Part shown: positions 4,051 through 37,050 of the stretch, piece after piece | Numbering within the stretch: the first letter of the stretch is position 1 | How the letters are laid out: the number at the start of each line of letters is the position of its first letter | From: a virus | Reading direction: 5' to 3' (one strand) | IMG/VR virus record: IMGVR_UViG_3300022670_000083 | Coordinates: 1-37,382 of that record | DNA: 37,382 nt | Position numbers and translations under genes: made by a program | Notes under the pieces: generated by a model | What the model was told of the DNA's origin: nothing | Seen by the model: the letters and a program-made list of their open reading frames with translations, nothing else | The model's database searches: none

Positions 4051-6111
4051 TTAAAAGCTAGTTATTCTTGATGTTGCGCTAGAGATAACAAAATCATCAC
4101 TTACTGCCCTAACCTTTAATGTTGCGGTCTGTCCTATCTTGAATTGACTAGATATTTGCGAGCAACCAGCAGGTATATCTGGATTATCTGTAATTGGAGA
4201 AATACCAATAGTACCGCCTGCACCGCCTCCACTTACACCAGCAATTAGCCACTCTACACGACCACCGCTAGTTGTTTGTATTCCACCAAGAACACTACCA
4301 TCTAAGCCACCCGTCCAATTTGAGGTCATGGTTAACTTATTTGAAGCTATTGAATAACGACCATTATCAGCAGCATCAGTTAACGTGACAATTTCTGAAC
4401 TTGCACCGGCGGTTATTGTTTGGCTTGGAATTGTATTTGTAAATACGCCAACAGGTAAAGGAGCAATAAAAGCCTCTGGTGAAACATCGGGGCCAAACCT
4501 TAACAGTGGGTTTCGCATTAAAGCGACAGCCCCGGCACTACTAGCATCAATCAACATGTAAACAGTTGCCGTTACTGCGCCTGTAGCTTGAGCGATACTG
4601 ATAGGATAACGAGCTGTATTTGTATTTAGATCAATTCCCTCTATTTGTTTAGATGCTAATATTGAAGCGCCAGAATCCTTTAACTCAATACCTATAGCTG
4701 AATCATTGCCGAAAGTACCTGAAATACTTCTCAACGTTGAACAGAAAGTCATAAAGTCACCCTTAACCAATCCGTCAGGTAAGACAATATCTTTTTCTAT
4801 TCGCGTTAATGCTGCGTTAGTTATTGTGATATTTACATCACTAACGTTAGTGACAGTCACACTTGTTATCGTACCGCCGACAGCCTCAACGTAATCATTA
4901 GGATTATTGCTTATTAAATCGTCAATGTACCAAGAAAGTAACGGCTCTTTAAAGTCGACAACGTTTCTAACTGCTTCCGATACACCAACTGAAATATCCC
5001 CAAAGCCTATCGCGTTTATGCGATCAAGAACTGCTACGATTTTATCGTAATTCGCATCGTTTAAAATAATGTCATGTGCAAAGTCTATTAATGTACCACC
5101 AAACCTGATTAGATCGTCTACTGCATCAACACATTGTTGTTCTGTTAGCGCTTCAATTCCTAATCTAAATAAGTCATATCGACCAACACCCTTTTGCATA
5201 GGTGAAGAACTTGCCGCTACTGTGAAAGCATAAGAGAAAATCCCGCTTGCCGCTTCTTTGTATACATCATTTAATACACTGTTAGGTGTTTGATAACCTA
5301 TAGCGTGAACACCTATTCTATTAAATTGCGACCATGTTGATTGAGCTTCACCAATAAACTTTAATATACCGTATGAGGTCCCGTTAGGCGCATCACCAGT
5401 AAAGCCGTGATTTATAATTTCAAAACCTGCTTCTTGCATTTCTTTGGTTTGGTTAAAATCTAGCTTAGAACCACCTGATAATAAGTTTGCTCCAGGTATA
5501 GCTAAACCGTATTTATAACCGCGAGCATCAAACAAAGTTTTCAATACTCCGCTTGGTCCTGCTGAGTTGTGCGCGTCATCAAACACCCAAGATAAATGAG
5601 GGGTTATATTTGCCGACTCTCGACGTACAAAACTTATAACTGCATTAGCTACACCGATAAGAATATTTACTGTATTAGGTGTTACGCCACTGGTTAAAAC
5701 TACGTCATAAGTCGCGCCGCCGCCGTTACCCGTTGAAAACTCCGCCGTTTCTACTACATCACCATTTTGATAATTTTTATTAGTATTTACTGTCATTGTT
5801 GCGGTTGTTAATTCATTTGCTGTTATAGCTCCTGAAACTGAGACAAACTCATCAACTGGATCGGCTGACCATATTTGAGAACCATTTTTATCCTTTAATA
5901 CAACTTTATATTTTCCAGTAATAAATATATCAGGAAATAAACCGTTAGAATCTGCAATAACAGGATTAGTATTTGCTGTTAACCCATTTACATCTGTAAA
6001 AGTGTCTTTGTCGTTATTCGTGCCAGTTTCAAAAAAGAATAACTGTGCGCCTGATGAAGGCAATATACCTGAACCTACATCAGCAAACGGTAGTACAAAT
6101 CTGGTTGTCAT
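4051..6111 (-). CDS. Tailspike/tail fibre with central polysaccharide-deacetylase-like (NodB/CE4-like) domain
   Basis: 686 aa and the last gene of the virion block, the position of P22 gp9. The central region (SWVFDDAHNS...ARGYKYGLAI...EAGFEIINHGFTG) resembles the NodB fold, and the C-terminus is G/T/S-rich. Confidence 0.5.
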   Translation of the reverse strand: MTTRFVLPFADVGSGILPSSGAQLFFFETGTNNDKDTFTDVNGLTANTNPVIADSNGLFPDIFITGKYKVVLKDKNGSQIWSADPVDEFVSVSGAITANELTTATMTVNTNKNYQNGDVVETAEFSTGNGGGATYDVVLTSGVTPNTVNILIGVANAVISFVRRESANITPHLSWVFDDAHNSAGPSGVLKTLFDARGYKYGLAIPGANLLSGGSKLDFNQTKEMQEAGFEIINHGFTGDAPNGTSYGILKFIGEAQSTWSQFNRIGVHAIGYQTPNSVLNDVYKEAASGIFSYAFTVAASSSPMQKGVGRYDLFRLGIEALTEQQCVDAVDDLIRFGGTLIDFAHDIILNDANYDKIVAVLDRINAIGFGDISVGVSEAVRNVVDFKEPLLSWYIDDLISNNPNDYVEAVGGTITSVTVTNVSDVNITITNAALTRIEKDIVLPDGLVKGDFMTFCSTLRSISGTFGNDSAIGIELKDSGASILASKQIEGIDLNTNTARYPISIAQATGAVTATVYMLIDASSAGAVALMRNPLLRFGPDVSPEAFIAPLPVGVFTNTIPSQTITAGASSEIVTLTDAADNGRYSIASNKLTMTSNWTGGLDGSVLGGIQTTSGGRVEWLIAGVSGGGAGGTIGISPITDNPDIPAGCSQISSQFKIGQTATLKVRAVSDDFVISSATSRITSF

Positions 6112-10083: not shown

Positions 10084-10547
10084 AATAATACCCCTTTGCC
10101 CGAGCTTATCAGCCCATCAGTTAATAGATCGCTATAATCTTCAACGATCACTTCTTTCTCTATCTCTTCTAAATCTGTTTTATCTGTTACGTGTACAGTT
10201 TGCCATATACAATCTTCATGTATAACAACTATCTTTTGAGTTCCTGCCTTTGATATAAAAGTATAAGGCGCTACTATTTCAGTTGAACCCTCTGCAGTTA
10301 TCACAGTAACAACACCAGTAAGTAATATATTAAAATGCTCTGTGGCATGTATCTTACCTATAATCCTAGTGCCTTTCGGCATAAATATTTCTCTAAGATA
10401 GCAACCATCAGTAAATCTATGTGTTACCGGGCATTCTTGGCTTTGCAACTCGCCACAATCAATAAGTTCTTGTAAAGATTTAGCTGTAGATTGAATTAAA
10501 TCTCTATTTTCTTTTATTTCATCGTTGTGCTTTGTCGTGATATCCAT
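10068..10547 (-). CDS. Cupin-fold-like protein (159 aa)
   Basis: Motif HRF.DG.Y.REI.MP.GT...G..H..EH.N.L..G resembles a double-stranded beta-helix (cupin). It has its own promoter-like element. Confidence 0.35.
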   Translation of the reverse strand: MDITTKHNDEIKENRDLIQSTAKSLQELIDCGELQSQECPVTHRFTDGCYLREIFMPKGTRIIGKIHATEHFNILLTGVVTVITAEGSTEIVAPYTFISKAGTQKIVVIHEDCIWQTVHVTDKTDLEEIEKEVIVEDYSDLLTDGLISSGKGVLLCRGD

Positions 10548-10570
10548 AACAAACCTTTTTGTATTGGTCG

Positions 10571-10600
10571 ATTATACTAAATTTTAGTGAATATAGCTAA
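10571..10600 (-). promoter_or_regulatory. Promoter candidate sharing a 17-mer with the scaffold promoter
   Basis: Minus strand reads ATTTAGTATAATCGACC (10582..10566), with TATAAT at 10576..10571. The -35 is weak (TTAGCT, 18-nt spacer). Confidence 0.4.
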
Positions 10601-10917
10601 ACTTCACGACCTGTTGCTGTGAAGTAGATAGAATTGAGCGCTGAAGACTCTAATTTAAGTTGTGCACCTGCCGGTATGACCTGGTTCACAATGCCAATAC
10701 CTAAATCTATTTCACCCCAAACGACTATTTTAAATGGCCTTTGTGGCTGCTCTGTGTCAGTTGAAACAATAAATGCTTTGTAGCTTGCGTTAACTGTAGA
10801 ATTATTAGCGGCTGTGAATGACTCAATGATCACGCCTCTTGAGCCTGCTGTAAATAATGTTTGAGGTGTATCGACTATAGTGTTTGGTTGGTTAGTTAAT
10901 ATTTGTGCTGTTGCCAT
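10597..10917 (-). CDS. Hypothetical virion-module protein (106 aa)
   Basis: ORF abutting the fibre gene (start/stop overlap). Composition looks beta-rich. Confidence 0.5.
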   Translation of the reverse strand: MATAQILTNQPNTIVDTPQTLFTAGSRGVIIESFTAANNSTVNASYKAFIVSTDTEQPQRPFKIVVWGEIDLGIGIVNQVIPAGAQLKLESSALNSIYFTATGREV

Positions 10918-29027: not shown

Positions 29028-29157
29028 TATTATTACCTTTACTGTAAGGCGCTGGCATTACGGATTTAGCTAATTCTAAATCCTTCTCTCTGTCACCAGT
29101 TGGATTAATGCCTTTTCTTTTTAATAGGGCTATTAACCCATCTGATGTAGTTGTCAT
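29014..29157 (-). CDS. Hypothetical 47-aa protein (below the track cutoff)
   Basis: The ATG overlaps the upstream stop (TAATG). Reads MTTTSDGLIALLKRKGINPTGDREKDLELAKSVMPAPYSKGNNNEQT. Confidence 0.35.
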   Translation of the reverse strand: MTTTSDGLIALLKRKGINPTGDREKDLELAKSVMPAPYSKGNNNEQT

Positions 29158-29645
29158 TATTTAACCTCAATTATCTCGTTTGGATAATCATCTGTAGGAC
29201 AGAATACCTCAACGGCTTTTTTCTGCTCATAAGGGAATTCAATATAAAATCTATCACCGCCTTTGCTAAAATGTGATTTATAAACTTCTCCCTCTTCGTT
29301 TTTATACCACTCCCAATATACTCGACCATCAATATCGTAAGGCTTTCCAGATTCGTCTTTAAATACTGTTGATAATCTTATGTTTTGAAGCGCACCTTCA
29401 CCGACATCATGCCATTCGCAATCGTCACCAGTTAATGGTGTTATCAACTTAAACTTAGCTAGCTTTTCAAATAAGTTAATTGCGTAACCGTAACTAGAGC
29501 CGCTATGCCCATGAGTTCCGAAAACCTCTAGCAACTCCAAAACCTGTTCACACATTAACTTTTGCACACTACATTCAAACTCACCTTTTGAATTAGACCA
29601 GCCAGCAAGTTCAAATTCTTTTTTAGCGTGTGTTATATAACTCAT
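29157..29645 (-). CDS. Hypothetical protein (162 aa)
   Basis: First gene after the divergent intergenic region 29646..29778. GTHGHSGSS motif, family not recognised. Confidence 0.55.
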   Translation of the reverse strand: MSYITHAKKEFELAGWSNSKGEFECSVQKLMCEQVLELLEVFGTHGHSGSSYGYAINLFEKLAKFKLITPLTGDDCEWHDVGEGALQNIRLSTVFKDESGKPYDIDGRVYWEWYKNEEGEVYKSHFSKGGDRFYIEFPYEQKKAVEVFCPTDDYPNEIIEVK

Positions 29646-29778
29646 TTTTTATATTTCCTTTTCGTTTAAGTTGATTTAACTATACATCACAAAGACTGTT
29701 TAACAGATTAGACCAGTTACATAAATCACAAATAAATTAAATATGTTAAACTTACCTTAACTAATAGGGGTTTATATT

Positions 29779-29835
29779 ATGAATGAAGAGCTTTATGACA
29801 TTTACAACGAAGAAGATTGGGGTTTATTTATATGA
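29779..29835 (+). CDS. Candidate 18-aa upstream ORF coupled to the holin-like gene
   Basis: AGGGG lies 9 nt upstream of the ATG at 29779. Reads MNEELYDIYNEEDWGLFI, and its TGA overlaps the ATG at 29832 (ATGA). Confidence 0.25.
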   Translation: MNEELYDIYNEEDWGLFI

Positions 29836-30197
29836 GTTGGTTTACTAGTTTGTTCAGTGGTGGTGGTATCGGTAAGTCTATTGAGAATATAGCAAGCGAA
29901 TGGATCACTACCGATATGGAAAGCGCAGAAGCTAAAGTTGTTATGATTAAAGCTCTTGACCCTAACGGTAAGATGCGAAGAGACTTATCCAAGAGGGTTA
30001 CTACTTTATACACGCTTTACATAGTAGTGGCTCTTATATTGCTTATCTGTGAAAGCTTTGGCTTAGGTGATGCTGAGCAAATAGCAATGGCAACAACTAA
30101 GGTTACCGGGTTATTCGTTCCTATAACTGGAATGTTTACAATGATAATCGGCGCGAGCTTTGGCGTGAACTATAATAATATCAATAAATCTAAATAG
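29832..30197 (+). CDS. Holin-like membrane protein (3-TM GTA-holin-like architecture)
   Basis: Track ORF (TTG at 29817) trimmed to the ATG at 29832. G-rich N-terminus, amphipathic D/E/A/K helix, then hydrophobic segments LYTLYIVVALILLI and GLFVPITGMFTMIIGASFG. Confidence 0.4.
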   Translation: MSWFTSLFSGGGIGKSIENIASEWITTDMESAEAKVVMIKALDPNGKMRRDLSKRVTTLYTLYIVVALILLICESFGLGDAEQIAMATTKVTGLFVPITGMFTMIIGASFGVNYNNINKSK

Positions 30198-30200
30198 AAT

Positions 30201-30223
30201 AAGGGCGCAATGCCCTTTTGTTT
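30201..30223 (+). terminator. Intrinsic terminator after the plus-strand holin-like gene
   Basis: aagggc-gcaat-gccctt followed by ttgttt, between convergent genes. Confidence 0.6.
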
Positions 30224-30235
30224 ATCTATCCTTGT

Positions 30236-32470: not shown

Positions 32471-33172
32471 TTACCCTTGAGTAACTAATACAACATGGCC
32501 ATCATCTAATAACTTCTTAATTTCTAGTTGGTAAAGCTCTTCGGTACCACCTTGTGACCATACACGATTCATCTGGCCAGTTAAATTTGTTCTCCTTATA
32601 TCTTCAACGGTAAAGTTTAATATGCCTTTCTTTCTATTCTTGGTCACGCTAATCAGTTTAGCAAACTCCCACTTGGCCACGTGCTTTTGATTAGGGTTGA
32701 ACTTGTTGACGGTACCAATGCACTCCATAGTGAACCATTCACCTCTTACATGGAATTGCTTACAAGCTCTGTGAAGTCTTTTCTCTATACTTATCGCGTC
32801 CTTTGGTGTGTTGGCTATATAATACTTCCAAAGCAAAACTAGCTCACTTGGGCTTGATGTCTGCAGCGTTTTTAATCTTCCGTCTACATTGCTAGACATT
32901 CCTAATTTTACTTGTTGGCCATTACTGATCGCATAAAGATAATGCTTTTTAACTACTGCAGGTTTTTTCTTTACATAAGTTAATTGATTGGCCAATTGTT
33001 TTTGAGCTGCAGTAAAGTAGTTATTAATCTGGTACCACTTAATTAACGATACTGCTTTTTGTTTATCATCGTGACCAGTTGTTTTAGCTAACGAGAATTT
33101 CTTTAACTTGATCACCGTCAACTGTTCGTAGCTTAAATGTGATTTATACTTGTTCTTTTTAACTTTAGACAT
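32471..33172 (-). CDS. T5orf172/MUG113 domain protein (GIY-YIG superfamily)
   Basis: HYLYAISNGQQVKLGMSSNVDGRLKTLQTSSP.EL.LL......A..IEKRLH.....F.VRGEWF is the T5orf172 core. It has extra N- and C-terminal regions. Confidence 0.7.
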   Translation of the reverse strand: MSKVKKNKYKSHLSYEQLTVIKLKKFSLAKTTGHDDKQKAVSLIKWYQINNYFTAAQKQLANQLTYVKKKPAVVKKHYLYAISNGQQVKLGMSSNVDGRLKTLQTSSPSELVLLWKYYIANTPKDAISIEKRLHRACKQFHVRGEWFTMECIGTVNKFNPNQKHVAKWEFAKLISVTKNRKKGILNFTVEDIRRTNLTGQMNRVWSQGGTEELYQLEIKKLLDDGHVVLVTQG

Positions 33173-33672
33173 AACTAAATCCCTTTCTTATCTCTAGAAG
33201 CTCTAATCAAGGATACATTCCTCTAAGCGCTAGATGATAATAATAAGGTCCCCCTAAATTAATATTTCATCATTGATAACATGGATACAAGTAATAGCAT
33301 TGCCATGATTTATAAAACCGTATTTATACTCTTGTTTCCCTGAGTGCGGATTATTTTACGATAGTTACCGAGAATATCGGCAGTTTGATTAATCTGTATA
33401 TAAGAATGAGCTAGCCAATGGGCTTTAACCGTTGAAATCTACTCTCGTAAACATTATCGCTTTTTCTTGGATAACGACATCGCTTACTAACTCACTCATA
33501 TATACAGACTATAGAAGCTACTTGAAAGGAAACAAAAAAGGTACTTAGAATACATGACCCCTGTTTAGTAGAGGGAAGAACTTCAGTGAGAATAACCCAT
33601 CAAAGATCACATATTCTAAATACCCTTTACCAAAGTTACTATTTTCAAGCAGCTACTAAACTGCGGTTTACT
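33173..33672 (-). ncRNA. ORF-free, promoter-driven structured RNA or long 5' leader of the T5orf172 gene (class unknown)
   Basis: No credible ORF on either strand. It has a dedicated promoter and several long-range helices whose wobble positions are G-U only on the minus transcript (see findings). Confidence 0.45.
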
Positions 33673-33677
33673 TAACT

Positions 33678-33706
33678 ATTATATTATTTATCAGCTTGTT
33701 TTGCAA
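33678..33706 (-). promoter_or_regulatory. Near-consensus sigma70 promoter (TTGCAA-N17-TATAAT)
   Basis: Minus strand: TTGCAA (33706..33701), 17-nt spacer, TATAAT (33683..33678), starting 7 nt after the stop of the upstream gene. Confidence 0.55.
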
Positions 33707-33712
33707 TGTTAA

Positions 33713-34000
33713 TCATCTTCGTGTAGTTGAAAATGTCTTATTCATGTCTTTATTACGAATAGCATCCTTGCAATCTATGAACGTCTTAGCATTCATATAA
33801 AGACCTGTATCCATTTTTATTATCTGACCATCCTCAAGTGTATCAACAAGTGTTTTTACCTCTTTATCTTTAGTGAGCGGCGTAAATGGTAATGTAAATA
33901 ACCTTTCTTTCCATGTTCTTTTTATAAGTTCAGTACAATTTACTGGCTCTGATATTGTTACAGGTACGCCTTGTAATGTTTGCGGGTTAAATATACTCAT
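33713..34000 (-). CDS. Hypothetical protein (95 aa)
   Basis: ORF overlapping the Lar-like stop (ATGA type). Confidence 0.5.
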   Translation of the reverse strand: MSIFNPQTLQGVPVTISEPVNCTELIKRTWKERLFTLPFTPLTKDKEVKTLVDTLEDGQIIKMDTGLYMNAKTFIDCKDAIRNKDMNKTFSTTRR

Positions 34001-34212
34001 TTCTTTATTTGCTCCTGTTCTATTTGAAATCTTTTATTCCAATACGTGTAATCAAATGAGCCATCATCGTTTTTATATACCGTCATTGATGGATTAGGAC
34101 AAAGCATTGATAGTTTACTGCATCCTATTATTTGATACGTACTGTGGTCTTTTTCGCTAACTATGACCTTTGCTTCTTCACCACAAAATGGACAGGGTTT
34201 TAATTCACTCAC
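33997..34212 (-). CDS. Lar-family restriction-alleviation-like zinc-ribbon protein
   Basis: The N-terminus MSELKPCPFCGEEAKV is the Lar family signature, and there is a second Cys pair downstream. Confidence 0.55.
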   Translation of the reverse strand: MSELKPCPFCGEEAKVIVSEKDHSTYQIIGCSKLSMLCPNPSMTVYKNDDGSFDYTYWNKRFQIEQEQIKK

Positions 34213-36272: not shown

Positions 36273-36592
36273 TGTTCGCCCCTTGCTTTAGCTAATAAAA
36301 CTTGAGCATTGTGACAGCTTTCTTTATCCCAATGATCGGCAGGTGTTATATTGTCGGTGTGGTGCATGTCTCGCATAGCGTTTATTTCATCAATCGCCAT
36401 ATTTAACTCACTTGTTAATAATTCAATCATTTTATACATACAAGGAGCGACACCTATTAAGTGTGCGTCATGCTTATCGTAAGTGTCAGCTATACAGCCA
36501 CCACTAACTGCGTTTATATTAAAGTGTTCACTCTCTGTTATAGGTAAGTCGCATTGCTCAACCAACCATTCACCTTTAGTAAATTTAGTCAT
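36269..36592 (-). CDS. Hypothetical phage protein (107 aa)
   Basis: MTKFTKGEW...AHLIGVAPCMYKMIELL resembles a widespread phage family of unknown function. Confidence 0.5.
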   Translation of the reverse strand: MTKFTKGEWLVEQCDLPITESEHFNINAVSGGCIADTYDKHDAHLIGVAPCMYKMIELLTSELNMAIDEINAMRDMHHTDNITPADHWDKESCHNAQVLLAKARGEQ

Positions 36593-37050
36593 TATTCTTC
36601 TCCTGATTTATATATTTCAATCATAGATTTATTTGCTGCAACCTCTATATCTACCATTAATTTATTGAGGTCACTTGTGGATATATAAATAGAACCTCTT
36701 CTAGAAAAAGAAATAGGAAGCTCTCTTATTATTTTTTTTATTTTAACGTCAGCCACATCAAAGGCTTGGTTTATTAATATAAAATCTTTATTTGCTGGTA
36801 TGTTTAAATTTAGTTTTGGATTAAATTTTACTATGTCTGTAGCCTCTGTATTTGACATTTCAGGGCCAGACTCTAACCTTTTAAACTCAACTGAACAAAA
36901 ATCTTTATCGCTACATATATGAGCGTAAACTCTTCTTGATGGATAGTAAGAGCTACCTATGTACACAATCTCATTTTCACTATTGATTAAATGATAAACA
37001 CAATAGAAGTTTTTACCGCTAAACTCTTTTACAAAGGATTTTGGTCCCAT
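36592..37050 (-). CDS. GIY-YIG-like domain protein
   Basis: The N-terminus FYCVYHLINSENEIVYIGSSYYPSRRVYAH fits the GIY...YIG...R spacing. Second gene of the early operon. Confidence 0.45.
   Translation of the reverse strand: MGPKSFVKEFSGKNFYCVYHLINSENEIVYIGSSYYPSRRVYAHICSDKDFCSVEFKRLESGPEMSNTEATDIVKFNPKLNLNIPANKDFILINQAFDVADVKIKKIIRELPISFSRRGSIYISTSDLNKLMVDIEVAANKSMIEIYKSGEE

Follow-up and report, generated by a model that had tools for sequence, protein, structure and literature searches.

The virus record IMGVR_UViG_3300022670_000083 of IMG/VR was analysed over its whole length of 37,382 nucleotides (hereafter the window). Between two of its minus-strand genes lies a gene-free gap of 540 bp (33173–33712), and the question raised by this locus is what a stretch of that size encodes. 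A preliminary description, made from the sequence alone, had proposed that the minus strand of the gap is transcribed from its own promoter into a structured RNA of about 500 nt, and that this RNA forms a module with the T5orf172 gene that follows. We find that many unrelated marine phages share an RNA structure that is conserved, strand-specific and multi-domain and is preceded by a conserved promoter. The favoured reading, to which we assign a probability of roughly 0.6, is that the gap encodes a large non-coding RNA, modular and structured, that is autonomous and represents a new family outside Rfam 15.

Strand-specific structure of the gap RNA

As had been proposed, the gap holds no appreciable open reading frame (ORF), the longest within 33173–33712 being 38 aa on the plus strand (TTG start) and 24 aa on the minus strand. 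The minus-strand RNA was found to fold with a minimum free energy of −143.4 kcal/mol (z = −5.97), a value that none of 100 shuffled sequences equalled, against z = −1.78 for the plus strand of the gap. This asymmetry matches the earlier argument for a sense-strand RNA, which had been drawn from imperfect pairs that are G-U on the minus strand and A-C on the plus strand. The signal was not spread evenly: the z-score was −6.45 for 33671–33510, −6.46 for 33515–33385 (the helix-i domain) and 0.06 for 33310–33173. The proposed structured RNA thus stands as to structure and not as to length, since about 330 nt (about 33671–33340) rather than about 500 nt are significantly structured.

All four helices that had been described, i to iv, are present. 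Three were recovered by an independent inverted-repeat search, as repeats I1 (helix i, 33390–33414/33487–33511), I4 (helix ii, 33512–33527/33643–33658) and I5 (helix iii, 33557–33571/33653–33667), and helix iv is seen in the sequence. The same search returned a further repeat, I2, corresponding to a long hairpin that the helix list had lacked; the largest element of the RNA, a hairpin of 25–28 bp followed by a U-tract, had been overlooked.

The elements of the RNA all lie on the minus strand. The 5'-terminal hairpin P1 (33649–33664) pairs GCAG at 33664–33661 with CUGC at 33652–33649 around an 8-nt loop, UUUAGUAG (33660–33653). The long hairpin spans 33538–33626, with a 5' arm at 33626–33602, a 3' arm at 33562–33538 and an apical GGG/CCC helix (33598–33596/33575–33573), and ends in CCUUUUUUGUUU. 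On its 3' side it carries a bulge, CUACUAAAC (33563–33571), which pairs with the P1 loop and G33661 to form helix iii; the loop UUUAGUAG and its partner CUACUAAA make 8 bp at −6.8 kcal/mol, first among 16 candidate partners. The U-tract UUUUUUGUUU (33530–33539) follows directly and gives the hairpin the appearance of an intrinsic terminator, with a run of six U; a simple terminator scan misses it (loop >8 nt).

Helix ii is a long-range pairing that closes this 5' domain. Its 5' strand, AGCUGCUUGAAA (33643–33654), overlaps the 3' strand of P1 and the last two loop bases, and its 3' strand, UUUCAAGUAGCU (33516–33527), makes 12 bp with 33654–33643. In the nested minimum-energy fold of the window RNA, helix ii is formed and P1 is open. 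The helix-i domain (33390–33511) consists of a 13+9-bp closing helix (33508–33486/33415–33393) around a three-way junction. It is followed by the helix iv hairpin, (U)GCCGA-UAUUC-UCGGU(A), at 33382–33366, in which 33382–33377 pairs with 33371–33366 with one G-U, and by a conserved block, ACUAUCGUAAAAUAAUCCGCAC; hairpin and block together span 33344–33382. A 19-nt stretch of the helix-iv region (33371–33389) is 74 % complementary to 33599–33617 in the 5' arm of the long hairpin (inverted repeat I3), which may reflect a tertiary contact, an alternative pairing or chance.

Homologous loci, promoter and covariation

Neither megablast of the locus against phages nor blastn against plasmids gave a match. 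Sensitive blastn gave one partial match, in a 546-bp unannotated gap of Vibrio phage NF, where the −10 box and the first ~150 nt resemble the window. With NF as query, matches were obtained in Vibrio phage 1.054.O and Pseudoalteromonas phages HS1, HS5 and BS5, all of them within ORF-poor gaps of 550–750 bp. Degenerate patterns with an nhmmer filter added viral contigs L050 and L054, a contig of a Colwellia metagenome-assembled genome (L092) and metagenome contigs L203, L264 and L272; a pattern for the 3' end added L288–L294, and one for the central block L297, L298 and L300. A covariance-model scan of the NF genome revealed a second, divergent copy at ~10262–10871 on the minus strand (42.4 bits). 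This second copy (L295, MN812722.2) is unannotated in the record, and its pairing sequence, GGUGAGAG/CUCUCACU, is unlike that of the first.

The family thus comprises at least about 22 loci. The first DNA patterns used (TAAGTACCTTTTTTGT; GTGATCTTTG..GGTCAYGTAT) returned chance matches only. Such matches also dominated the scans of genome contigs, in which the Colwellia copy was the one real occurrence found. When the canonical 3' domain was searched against phages by blastn, weak matches in ORFs of the Vibrio phage K-series were obtained (E = 0.02) and the known copy in BS5 was not recovered, so BLAST is too insensitive for this domain. Rfam 15 returned nothing over the whole window at gathering thresholds and only noise in the gap at E≤10, and no family matched either of two sets of homologous loci, together 16, at E≤5 and E≤1, in agreement with the earlier statement that the RNA could be placed in no known class. 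No description of the family was found in the literature, where a catalogue of ~10,000 short candidate viral RNAs (PMC10690425) might hold a fragment as one of its unnamed entries.

The carriers so far are marine Vibrio and Pseudoalteromonas phages, the Colwellia genome and viral or metagenome contigs. The terminase of the window is closest to those of PEp14/Parlo-type podoviruses, and judging from annotated tail and head genes and the terminase, NF and the Pseudoalteromonas phages appear to differ in kind from the window phage. Because the carrier backbones appear unrelated, the RNA looks to have moved between unrelated phages. In the records of HS1, HS5 and BS5 (L045, L044 and L046), opposite-strand coding sequences for 'hypothetical proteins' of 29–91 aa lie across the RNA locus and are probably spurious calls over an RNA gene.

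The sigma-70-type promoter that had been described is present on the minus strand at 33678–33706, with a −35 box TTGCAA (33706–33701), a 17-nt spacer and a −10 box TATAAT (33683–33678), and transcription is predicted to start near 33671. Taken alone it does not exceed chance: in this AT-rich DNA seven promoter-like sites were found and 7.9 were expected. It is credible because an equivalent promoter sits at the same place in all 14 members examined (−10 TATAAT in 12 and TAAAAT in two, −35 at 16–17 nt, often with a TG extension), the −10 box lying 6–29 nt upstream of the 5' hairpin in sequences otherwise unrelated. The preliminary promoter call is therefore upheld by the homologues rather than by the window itself. 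In Pseudoalteromonas-type copies a further conserved block (GAAATAACAAAT...GCATATARCTAAACGGTATTTA) lies ~100 nt upstream of the RNA promoter (2650–2744 in L044/L045, that is HS5/HS1; ~2790–2840 in L050; ~8960–9060 in L294), and could be a regulator-binding site.

Across the family the RNA is ~400–650 nt long, with lineage-specific domain insertions, and occupies various genomic positions. The order of elements is the promoter, P1 (GCNG, 8-nt loop, CNGY), an A-rich linker, the long hairpin and the U-tract. An optional domain closed by GUAUCUG/CAGAUAC follows, which is absent from the window and HS5, and then in most members a CCUUUC that pairs back to the linker (GAAAG) as helix ii. Next comes a variable middle with the helix-i domain, the CCGA hairpin and the AUCGUAAAA.AAUCCGC block, and last a 3' domain ending in ...CCAUG..AACG..UCUAAUGAYACUUAUU. 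The base of the long hairpin, GGGUAUUUAG/CUAAGUACC, is nearly invariant, with a U.G wobble in 13 of 13 sequences, and the U-tract is found in most members, the exceptions being HS1, HS5 and L050. One disrupted member, L292 (860–2320, plus strand), has a normal 5' part (~865–1040), then ~1.2 kb with ORFs of 83 and 174 aa and, after this insert, no more of the canonical 3' domain than its final ~70 nt, which suggests recombination or insertion within these RNA genes.

For the first part of the RNA, a covariance model, R1, was built from P1, linker, long hairpin and U-tract; the window, L288 and L290 were in its seed and the second NF copy was not. The model scored 104.8 bits (E = 2e-21) at 33530–33664 on the minus strand of the window, its sole copy there, a score that is partly by construction since the window is in the seed; L288 and L290 had first been detected independently, by the scan for the 3' motif. 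The sense strands of the members scored 95–132 bits and the antisense strands at most 24 bits.

In a model-guided alignment of 13 sequences, covering 29 pairs of P1 and the long hairpin (348 pair cells), 98.3 % of the cells were paired, seven pairs had changed on both sides and many were G-U. None of 500 shuffles reached these values, although the sequences are related and the family is small, so that shuffle tests overstate independence; slid controls were 38–53 % paired. The long hairpin alone (25 pairs) had 98 % of cells paired and six pairs with both sides changed. For P1 alone, 100 % of cells were paired in the 13 sequences, and its pair 3–14 was AU in five, GC in four and GU in four.

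Helix iii was present in 16 distinct versions of loop and partner, each of 6–9 bp. The mean energy was −9.1 kcal/mol for own partners compared to −4.4 kcal/mol for crossed ones, the own partner ranked first in 12 of the 16 and none of 100,000 permutations reached the observed mean. Members with another type of 5' domain still keep this pairing. The tests for helices iii and ii were restricted by position; wider duplex searches, over hairpin interiors or 140-nt windows, are not clean controls. Helix iii is a pseudoknot or possibly an intermolecular loop–bulge pairing.

Helix ii is replaced at the same position by other complementary sequences, namely ACCG.UUAA/UUAA.CGGU in L092, AAUGGUU/AAUCAUU in HS5 and L050 and AGAUGC/GCAUCU in L294. 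The base of helix i, UCUGUAU/AUACAGA, is common to the window, L054, L264 and L289, and its inner part differs yet remains complementary, as UGUUGAGUUAACC/GGUUAAUUCAACA in L054 and UAGUCUGAG/CUCAGACCA in L289. The helix-iv region (33384–33307) has 81 % identity to L203 and 92 % to L292, and the motif CCGA..YCGG..UCGUAA..AUCCGC occurs in at least 11 members. Of the four helices first described, i, ii and iii are thus kept through sequence change, while helix iv is conserved with an invariant stem that gives no covariation evidence either way. The overlap between helix ii and P1 is found in NF, L272, L264 and L294 as well as in the window, and since both pairings are maintained, a conformational switch is possible. 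Helices ii and iii had been proposed to form a pseudoknot or two exclusive conformers: helix iii does cross other helices, and alternative conformers are possible by way of the P1/helix ii overlap.

The canonical 3' domain has six pairs changed on both sides, and its closing helix occurs as UAGAUACG/CGUAUCUA, UAGAAGCG/CGCUUCUA and UAGACACG/CGUGUCUA. It is common even to members with a different 5' domain. A hidden Markov model of this domain (UAGAUACG...CAUGG...CCAUG..AACG..UCUAAUGAYAC) was without a match in the window or NF. The window copy is a clear member by its 5' domain, helix ii, helix-i domain and central block. Its 3' region (33173–33310), which is also the 5' untranslated region of the next gene, is reduced or divergent. 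This region contains a hairpin pairing CAUGG (33307–33303) with CCAUG (33284–33280) and, at about 33214–33189, the sequence AUCCUUGAUUAGAGCUUCUAGAGAUA, which resembles the 3'-terminal motif of the family; by eye it matches CAUCCAUGACUAACGCUUCUAAUGAUAC of L054 at 20 of 28 bases, a weak homology, and a direct repeat (D2) contains the motif twice. The Shine–Dalgarno sequence of the downstream gene, AAGAAAGGG, is at 33189–33181.

Several members carry tRNA or tRNA-like sequences at defined points of this layout. In L272 (2196–2269, minus strand) the place of the optional domain is taken by a genuine tRNA, called by ARAGORN as tRNA-Val with an AAC anticodon, which is an unusual one; it scores 46.5 bits with the Rfam tRNA model against a gathering score of 29, and its acceptor stem GUGUCUG/CAGACAC replaces the closing helix of the domain. 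Because conserved RNA, including this tRNA, lies downstream of the U-tract, read-through of the U-tract must occur. A GGUUCGAnUCC T-loop motif (GGTTCGAATCC or GGTTCGATTCC) with an acceptor-like stem is found in L289 (~4370–4470, plus strand, in a helix-i-like domain) and in the second NF copy (~10690–10590, minus strand, in the optional domain). Neither insert was called as a tRNA by ARAGORN or the Rfam tRNA model, and both look like tRNA-like or degenerate tRNA modules. For the window copy, ARAGORN at default settings found no tRNA or tmRNA; relaxed settings gave a poor tRNA-Leu-like call at 33495–33408, which, like the relaxed calls in L288 and L294, was taken as noise.

The upstream neighbour of the gap in the window is a 95-aa ORF (33713–34000, minus strand). 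Searches of the phage collection and the viral contigs gave no relatives for it, and no identical copy is on record. Downstream lies a 233-aa gene (32471–33172, minus strand) with a MUG113/T5orf172 domain (Pfam PF13455, 4.5e-11; PF10544, 6.9e-07). Other minus-strand genes of the window encode a 162-aa protein (29157–29645) that matches Pfam Tad3, a type I Thoeris inhibitor (E = 3e-34), 3.5 kb from the RNA; a Lar-like restriction-alleviation domain under the Pfam cut-off (33997–34212), also assigned to PHROG 599; and a GIY-YIG domain protein (36592–37050). The window copy sits in an early region with many accessory and nuclease-like genes (Lar-like, GIY-YIG, Tad3). The gap had been called by far the largest non-coding one of the genome; it is not the only long stretch without a minus-strand gene, 29646–30235 (590 bp) being another. 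That second stretch is unstructured (z = −0.5) and has a 126-aa plus-strand ORF with a TTG start and without a Pfam match. Close to its 5' end, as read on the minus strand, there is a GC-rich hairpin that has a U-run.

The proposed RNA gene and its alternatives

For the favoured reading, host RNA polymerase would start near 33671 at a strong sigma-70 promoter and make a transcript with P1, the A-rich linker, the 25-bp hairpin whose 3' bulge would pair with the P1 loop, and the U-tract. Helix ii would close the 5' domain, the helix-i three-way junction and the CCGA hairpin with its AUCGUAAAAUAAUCCGCAC block would follow, and a reduced 3' region would run into the next gene. The invariant helix and the loop–bulge contact would give the RNA a compact core or join several copies, and that core would bind a tRNA- or translation-related factor of the host or the phage. 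By analogy with GOLLD and ROOL, the product is most likely a discrete, stable, abundant RNA that acts in its own right. Its distribution suggests a unit that moves horizontally as a phage 'moron' does but encodes RNA, rather than the partner or regulator of one protein.

Several points weigh against this. The start site, ends, stability and processing of the RNA are predictions from sequence. A recognisable terminator is missing from the 3' end of every copy, and the window RNA abuts the Shine–Dalgarno sequence of the next gene, as would fit a leader. The internal hairpin and U-tract could end most transcripts at ~135 nt. The shuffle tests, drawn from a small set of related sequences, make the covariation appear more independent than it is, although many distinct compensated versions occur. 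The window copy may be reduced or partly decayed in its 3' region, and the analogy with GOLLD and ROOL is one of kind only, since their models do not match.

The main rival is a cis-acting leader or attenuator that would tune transcription or translation of the downstream genes, either with P1 and the pseudoknot competing with an extended helix ii to modulate the terminator, or with a put-like modification of the polymerase for read-through. We consider it a minority possibility that deserves serious attention. It would account for an RNA that is co-oriented with the neighbouring genes at all loci and always abuts the next gene without a 3' terminator of its own, for the internal terminator-like hairpin with its U-tract, for the maintenance of two mutually exclusive pairings (P1 with the pseudoknot, and full helix ii) in the five members named above and for an RNA that begins a few nucleotides from the predicted start, like put RNA.

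Against a leader, the downstream genes have nothing in common. A calcineurin-like or Ser/Thr phosphatase (metallophosphatase) follows both NF copies and the copy in 1.054.O, a methyltransferase those of HS1 and HS5, a scaffold protein that of BS5, a portal protein L289, an SPP1-gp7-like minor head protein L292, a ParB-like protein L272 and small zinc-finger proteins L054 and L288, with other small or uncharacterised proteins elsewhere; about half of the copies lie within head-morphogenesis gene clusters. The metallophosphatase was considered as a conserved partner on the strength of its three loci and dropped, at least 15 other loci having different downstream genes. A second promoter-like sequence lies 3' of the conserved RNA end in L092, L290, L291, L292, L293 and BS5, between the RNA and the next gene. 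Because the downstream genes vary and second promoters follow, the RNA appears as a self-contained unit and not as part of a one-protein module. Moreover, 300–500 nt of conserved, covarying structure with a tRNA past the U-tract exceed the needs of an attenuator, three members (HS1, HS5 and L050) have no U-tract, and neither alternative pairing reaches the lower stem of the terminator-like hairpin, so that it would not prevent termination.

It is quite unlikely that the functional product is only the first ~135 nt, an Hfq-type trans-acting small RNA with the rest being read-through untranslated region or unrelated. It is indeed the 5' domain that the window shares with NF and others, and a hairpin with a U-tract is a classic small-RNA 3' end. 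However, the P1 loop, which would be the seed, varies freely and covaries with the internal bulge, helix ii joins the 5' domain to sequence past the U-tract, the downstream domains are conserved and covarying across members, and the U-tract is missing from the three members just mentioned.

We regard as very improbable a DNA-level element, whether an origin of replication, a site of packaging or recombination, or a mobile element that is non-autonomous and has inverted repeats to which proteins bind. The occurrence at different sites in unrelated phages and the 1.2-kb interruption of the L292 copy could speak for it. Fold and model scores are strand-asymmetric, the invariant G-U pairs would be A-C on the other strand, a conserved promoter lies directly upstream and one member has a tRNA set in register with an RNA helix. 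Consistent with this, no iterons or tandem repeats were found in 33100–33760, and the gap shows no composition break, AT-rich unwinding block or skew change.

The module first proposed, in which the RNA would control, neutralise or partner the T5orf172 (GIY-YIG-like) protein, is largely refuted by synteny and has become a very remote prospect. Adjacency in the window, an RNA that ends at the Shine–Dalgarno sequence of the gene and an accessory-rich setting with Lar-like, Tad3 and GIY-YIG genes had made it attractive. Yet among more than 20 loci T5orf172 is downstream in the window only, with none of the ~21 others carrying T5orf172/MUG113 there; the relatives of the protein, in Vibrio phage 1.110.O and PE elements, were matches of tblastn and not reached via the RNA, in a comparison confined to the proteins, and ToxI-type tandem repeats are lacking.

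A decayed protein-coding gene, for which only the gene-sized length speaks, is extremely improbable, as the longest sense-strand ORFs in 16 homologous RNA regions are 24–73 aa at non-homologous, non-conserved positions, indels are not multiples of three and conservation tracks base pairing rather than codons. The short RNA alone, the DNA element, the decayed gene and the T5orf172 module are thus largely excluded.

Within the favoured reading of an autonomous RNA gene, a more specific proposal can be made, which is speculative and in our view unlikely. The RNA would be a new class of ornate phage RNA. Its loop–bulge contact may be intermolecular and lead to a defined multimer or to docking onto a partner, and the assembly may carry, present or mimic tRNAs, by which it would manipulate host translation or act as a decoy for anti-phage defences that target tRNA or other RNA. 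The orthogonal pairing sequences of the two NF paralogues, the tRNA or tRNA-like modules at defined insertion points and the position of the window copy among Tad3 and Lar-like genes are consistent with such a role.

The family is tractable, with cultured phage–host pairs available (Vibrio alginolyticus phage NF; Pseudoalteromonas phages HS1, HS5 and BS5), a length of 400–650 nt that suits structure work and 16 natural pseudoknot versions that can be swapped. For annotation, it accounts for 'empty' gaps of 0.5 kb in marine phage genomes, several of which have been filled with spurious short ORFs.

Comparison with known RNA systems

To our knowledge, only a few large RNA classes with elaborate conserved folds have been recognized in bacteria and phages, GOLLD, ROOL, OLE and raiA among them, and recent cryo-EM work has revealed that two of these assemble into cages made of RNA alone. 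Other candidates were set aside: a group I or II intron, since there was no Rfam match (E≤10) and the RNA, with a promoter of its own, is flanked by complete ORFs; and tmRNA, RNase P, 6S RNA, riboswitches and leaders, for which there was no Rfam match.

The HK022 put RNA and the lambda PR'-6S-tR' region resemble the new RNA in that, within a phage operon, a structured RNA starts essentially where transcription from a strong promoter does and a terminator-like hairpin comes after it. The put RNA is ~70 nt with two stem-loops, and the fold of lambda 6S RNA is not conserved. The new RNA differs in having 300–500 nt of conserved structure past the U-tract and no fixed position in the genome.

Similarly, the P1 c4 and P4 CI RNAs share with it a segment that is complementary to two other sites of the same transcript. 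They are ~80 nt, processed, and have targets upstream of a specific anti-repressor or operon, whereas the complementary sites here are inside one conserved fold and the neighbouring genes vary. Antisense sites of the c4 kind, which had been suggested for helices ii and iii, find no backing in the window: there is no Rfam c4 match, there are no repeated target sites and there is no anti-repressor context. The same applies to the suggestion of an RNA antitoxin, taken here as a ToxI-like (type III) one: tandem repeats are absent, and the gene downstream encodes a MUG113/T5orf172 protein rather than one of ToxN/AbiEii type.

The phi29 pRNA is alike in one respect, being a phage RNA in which two loops covary through mutual pairing (intermolecular in pRNA), and the head-morphogenesis setting of about half of the new copies adds to the likeness. 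There is, however, no Rfam pRNA match, the new RNA is much larger and the window copy is in an early/accessory region. The phages that carry pRNA are Bacillus podoviruses.

The closest parallels are GOLLD and ROOL, although neither model (RF01998 and RF03087, respectively) matched the gap or the 16 homologous loci. Both are phage-borne RNAs of unknown function that form RNA-only cages (PMC12286853; see also PMC7567579), and GOLLD linkers sometimes hold phage tRNAs (PMC12286853). Like GOLLD, the new RNA is phage-encoded, hundreds of nucleotides long, rich in helices and equipped with a pseudoknot, and it is modular, with one better-conserved and one variable part and sometimes a tRNA in the variable or linker region (L272 here). 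It differs in being ~400–650 nt rather than >800 nt, in having its own conserved promoter directly upstream, in being found so far only in marine gammaproteobacterial phages and in not lying beside tRNA arrays. With ROOL (~500–600 nt) it shares phage or prophage carriage, multiple pseudoknots and the lack of a known protein partner (PMC12286853), and it differs in hosts and architecture as well as in giving no covariance-model match. An unrelated further family with the same habits, that is phage-borne, modular, sometimes tRNA-carrying and furnished with a promoter of its own, would show that such RNAs are a recurrent invention of phages and not a curiosity.

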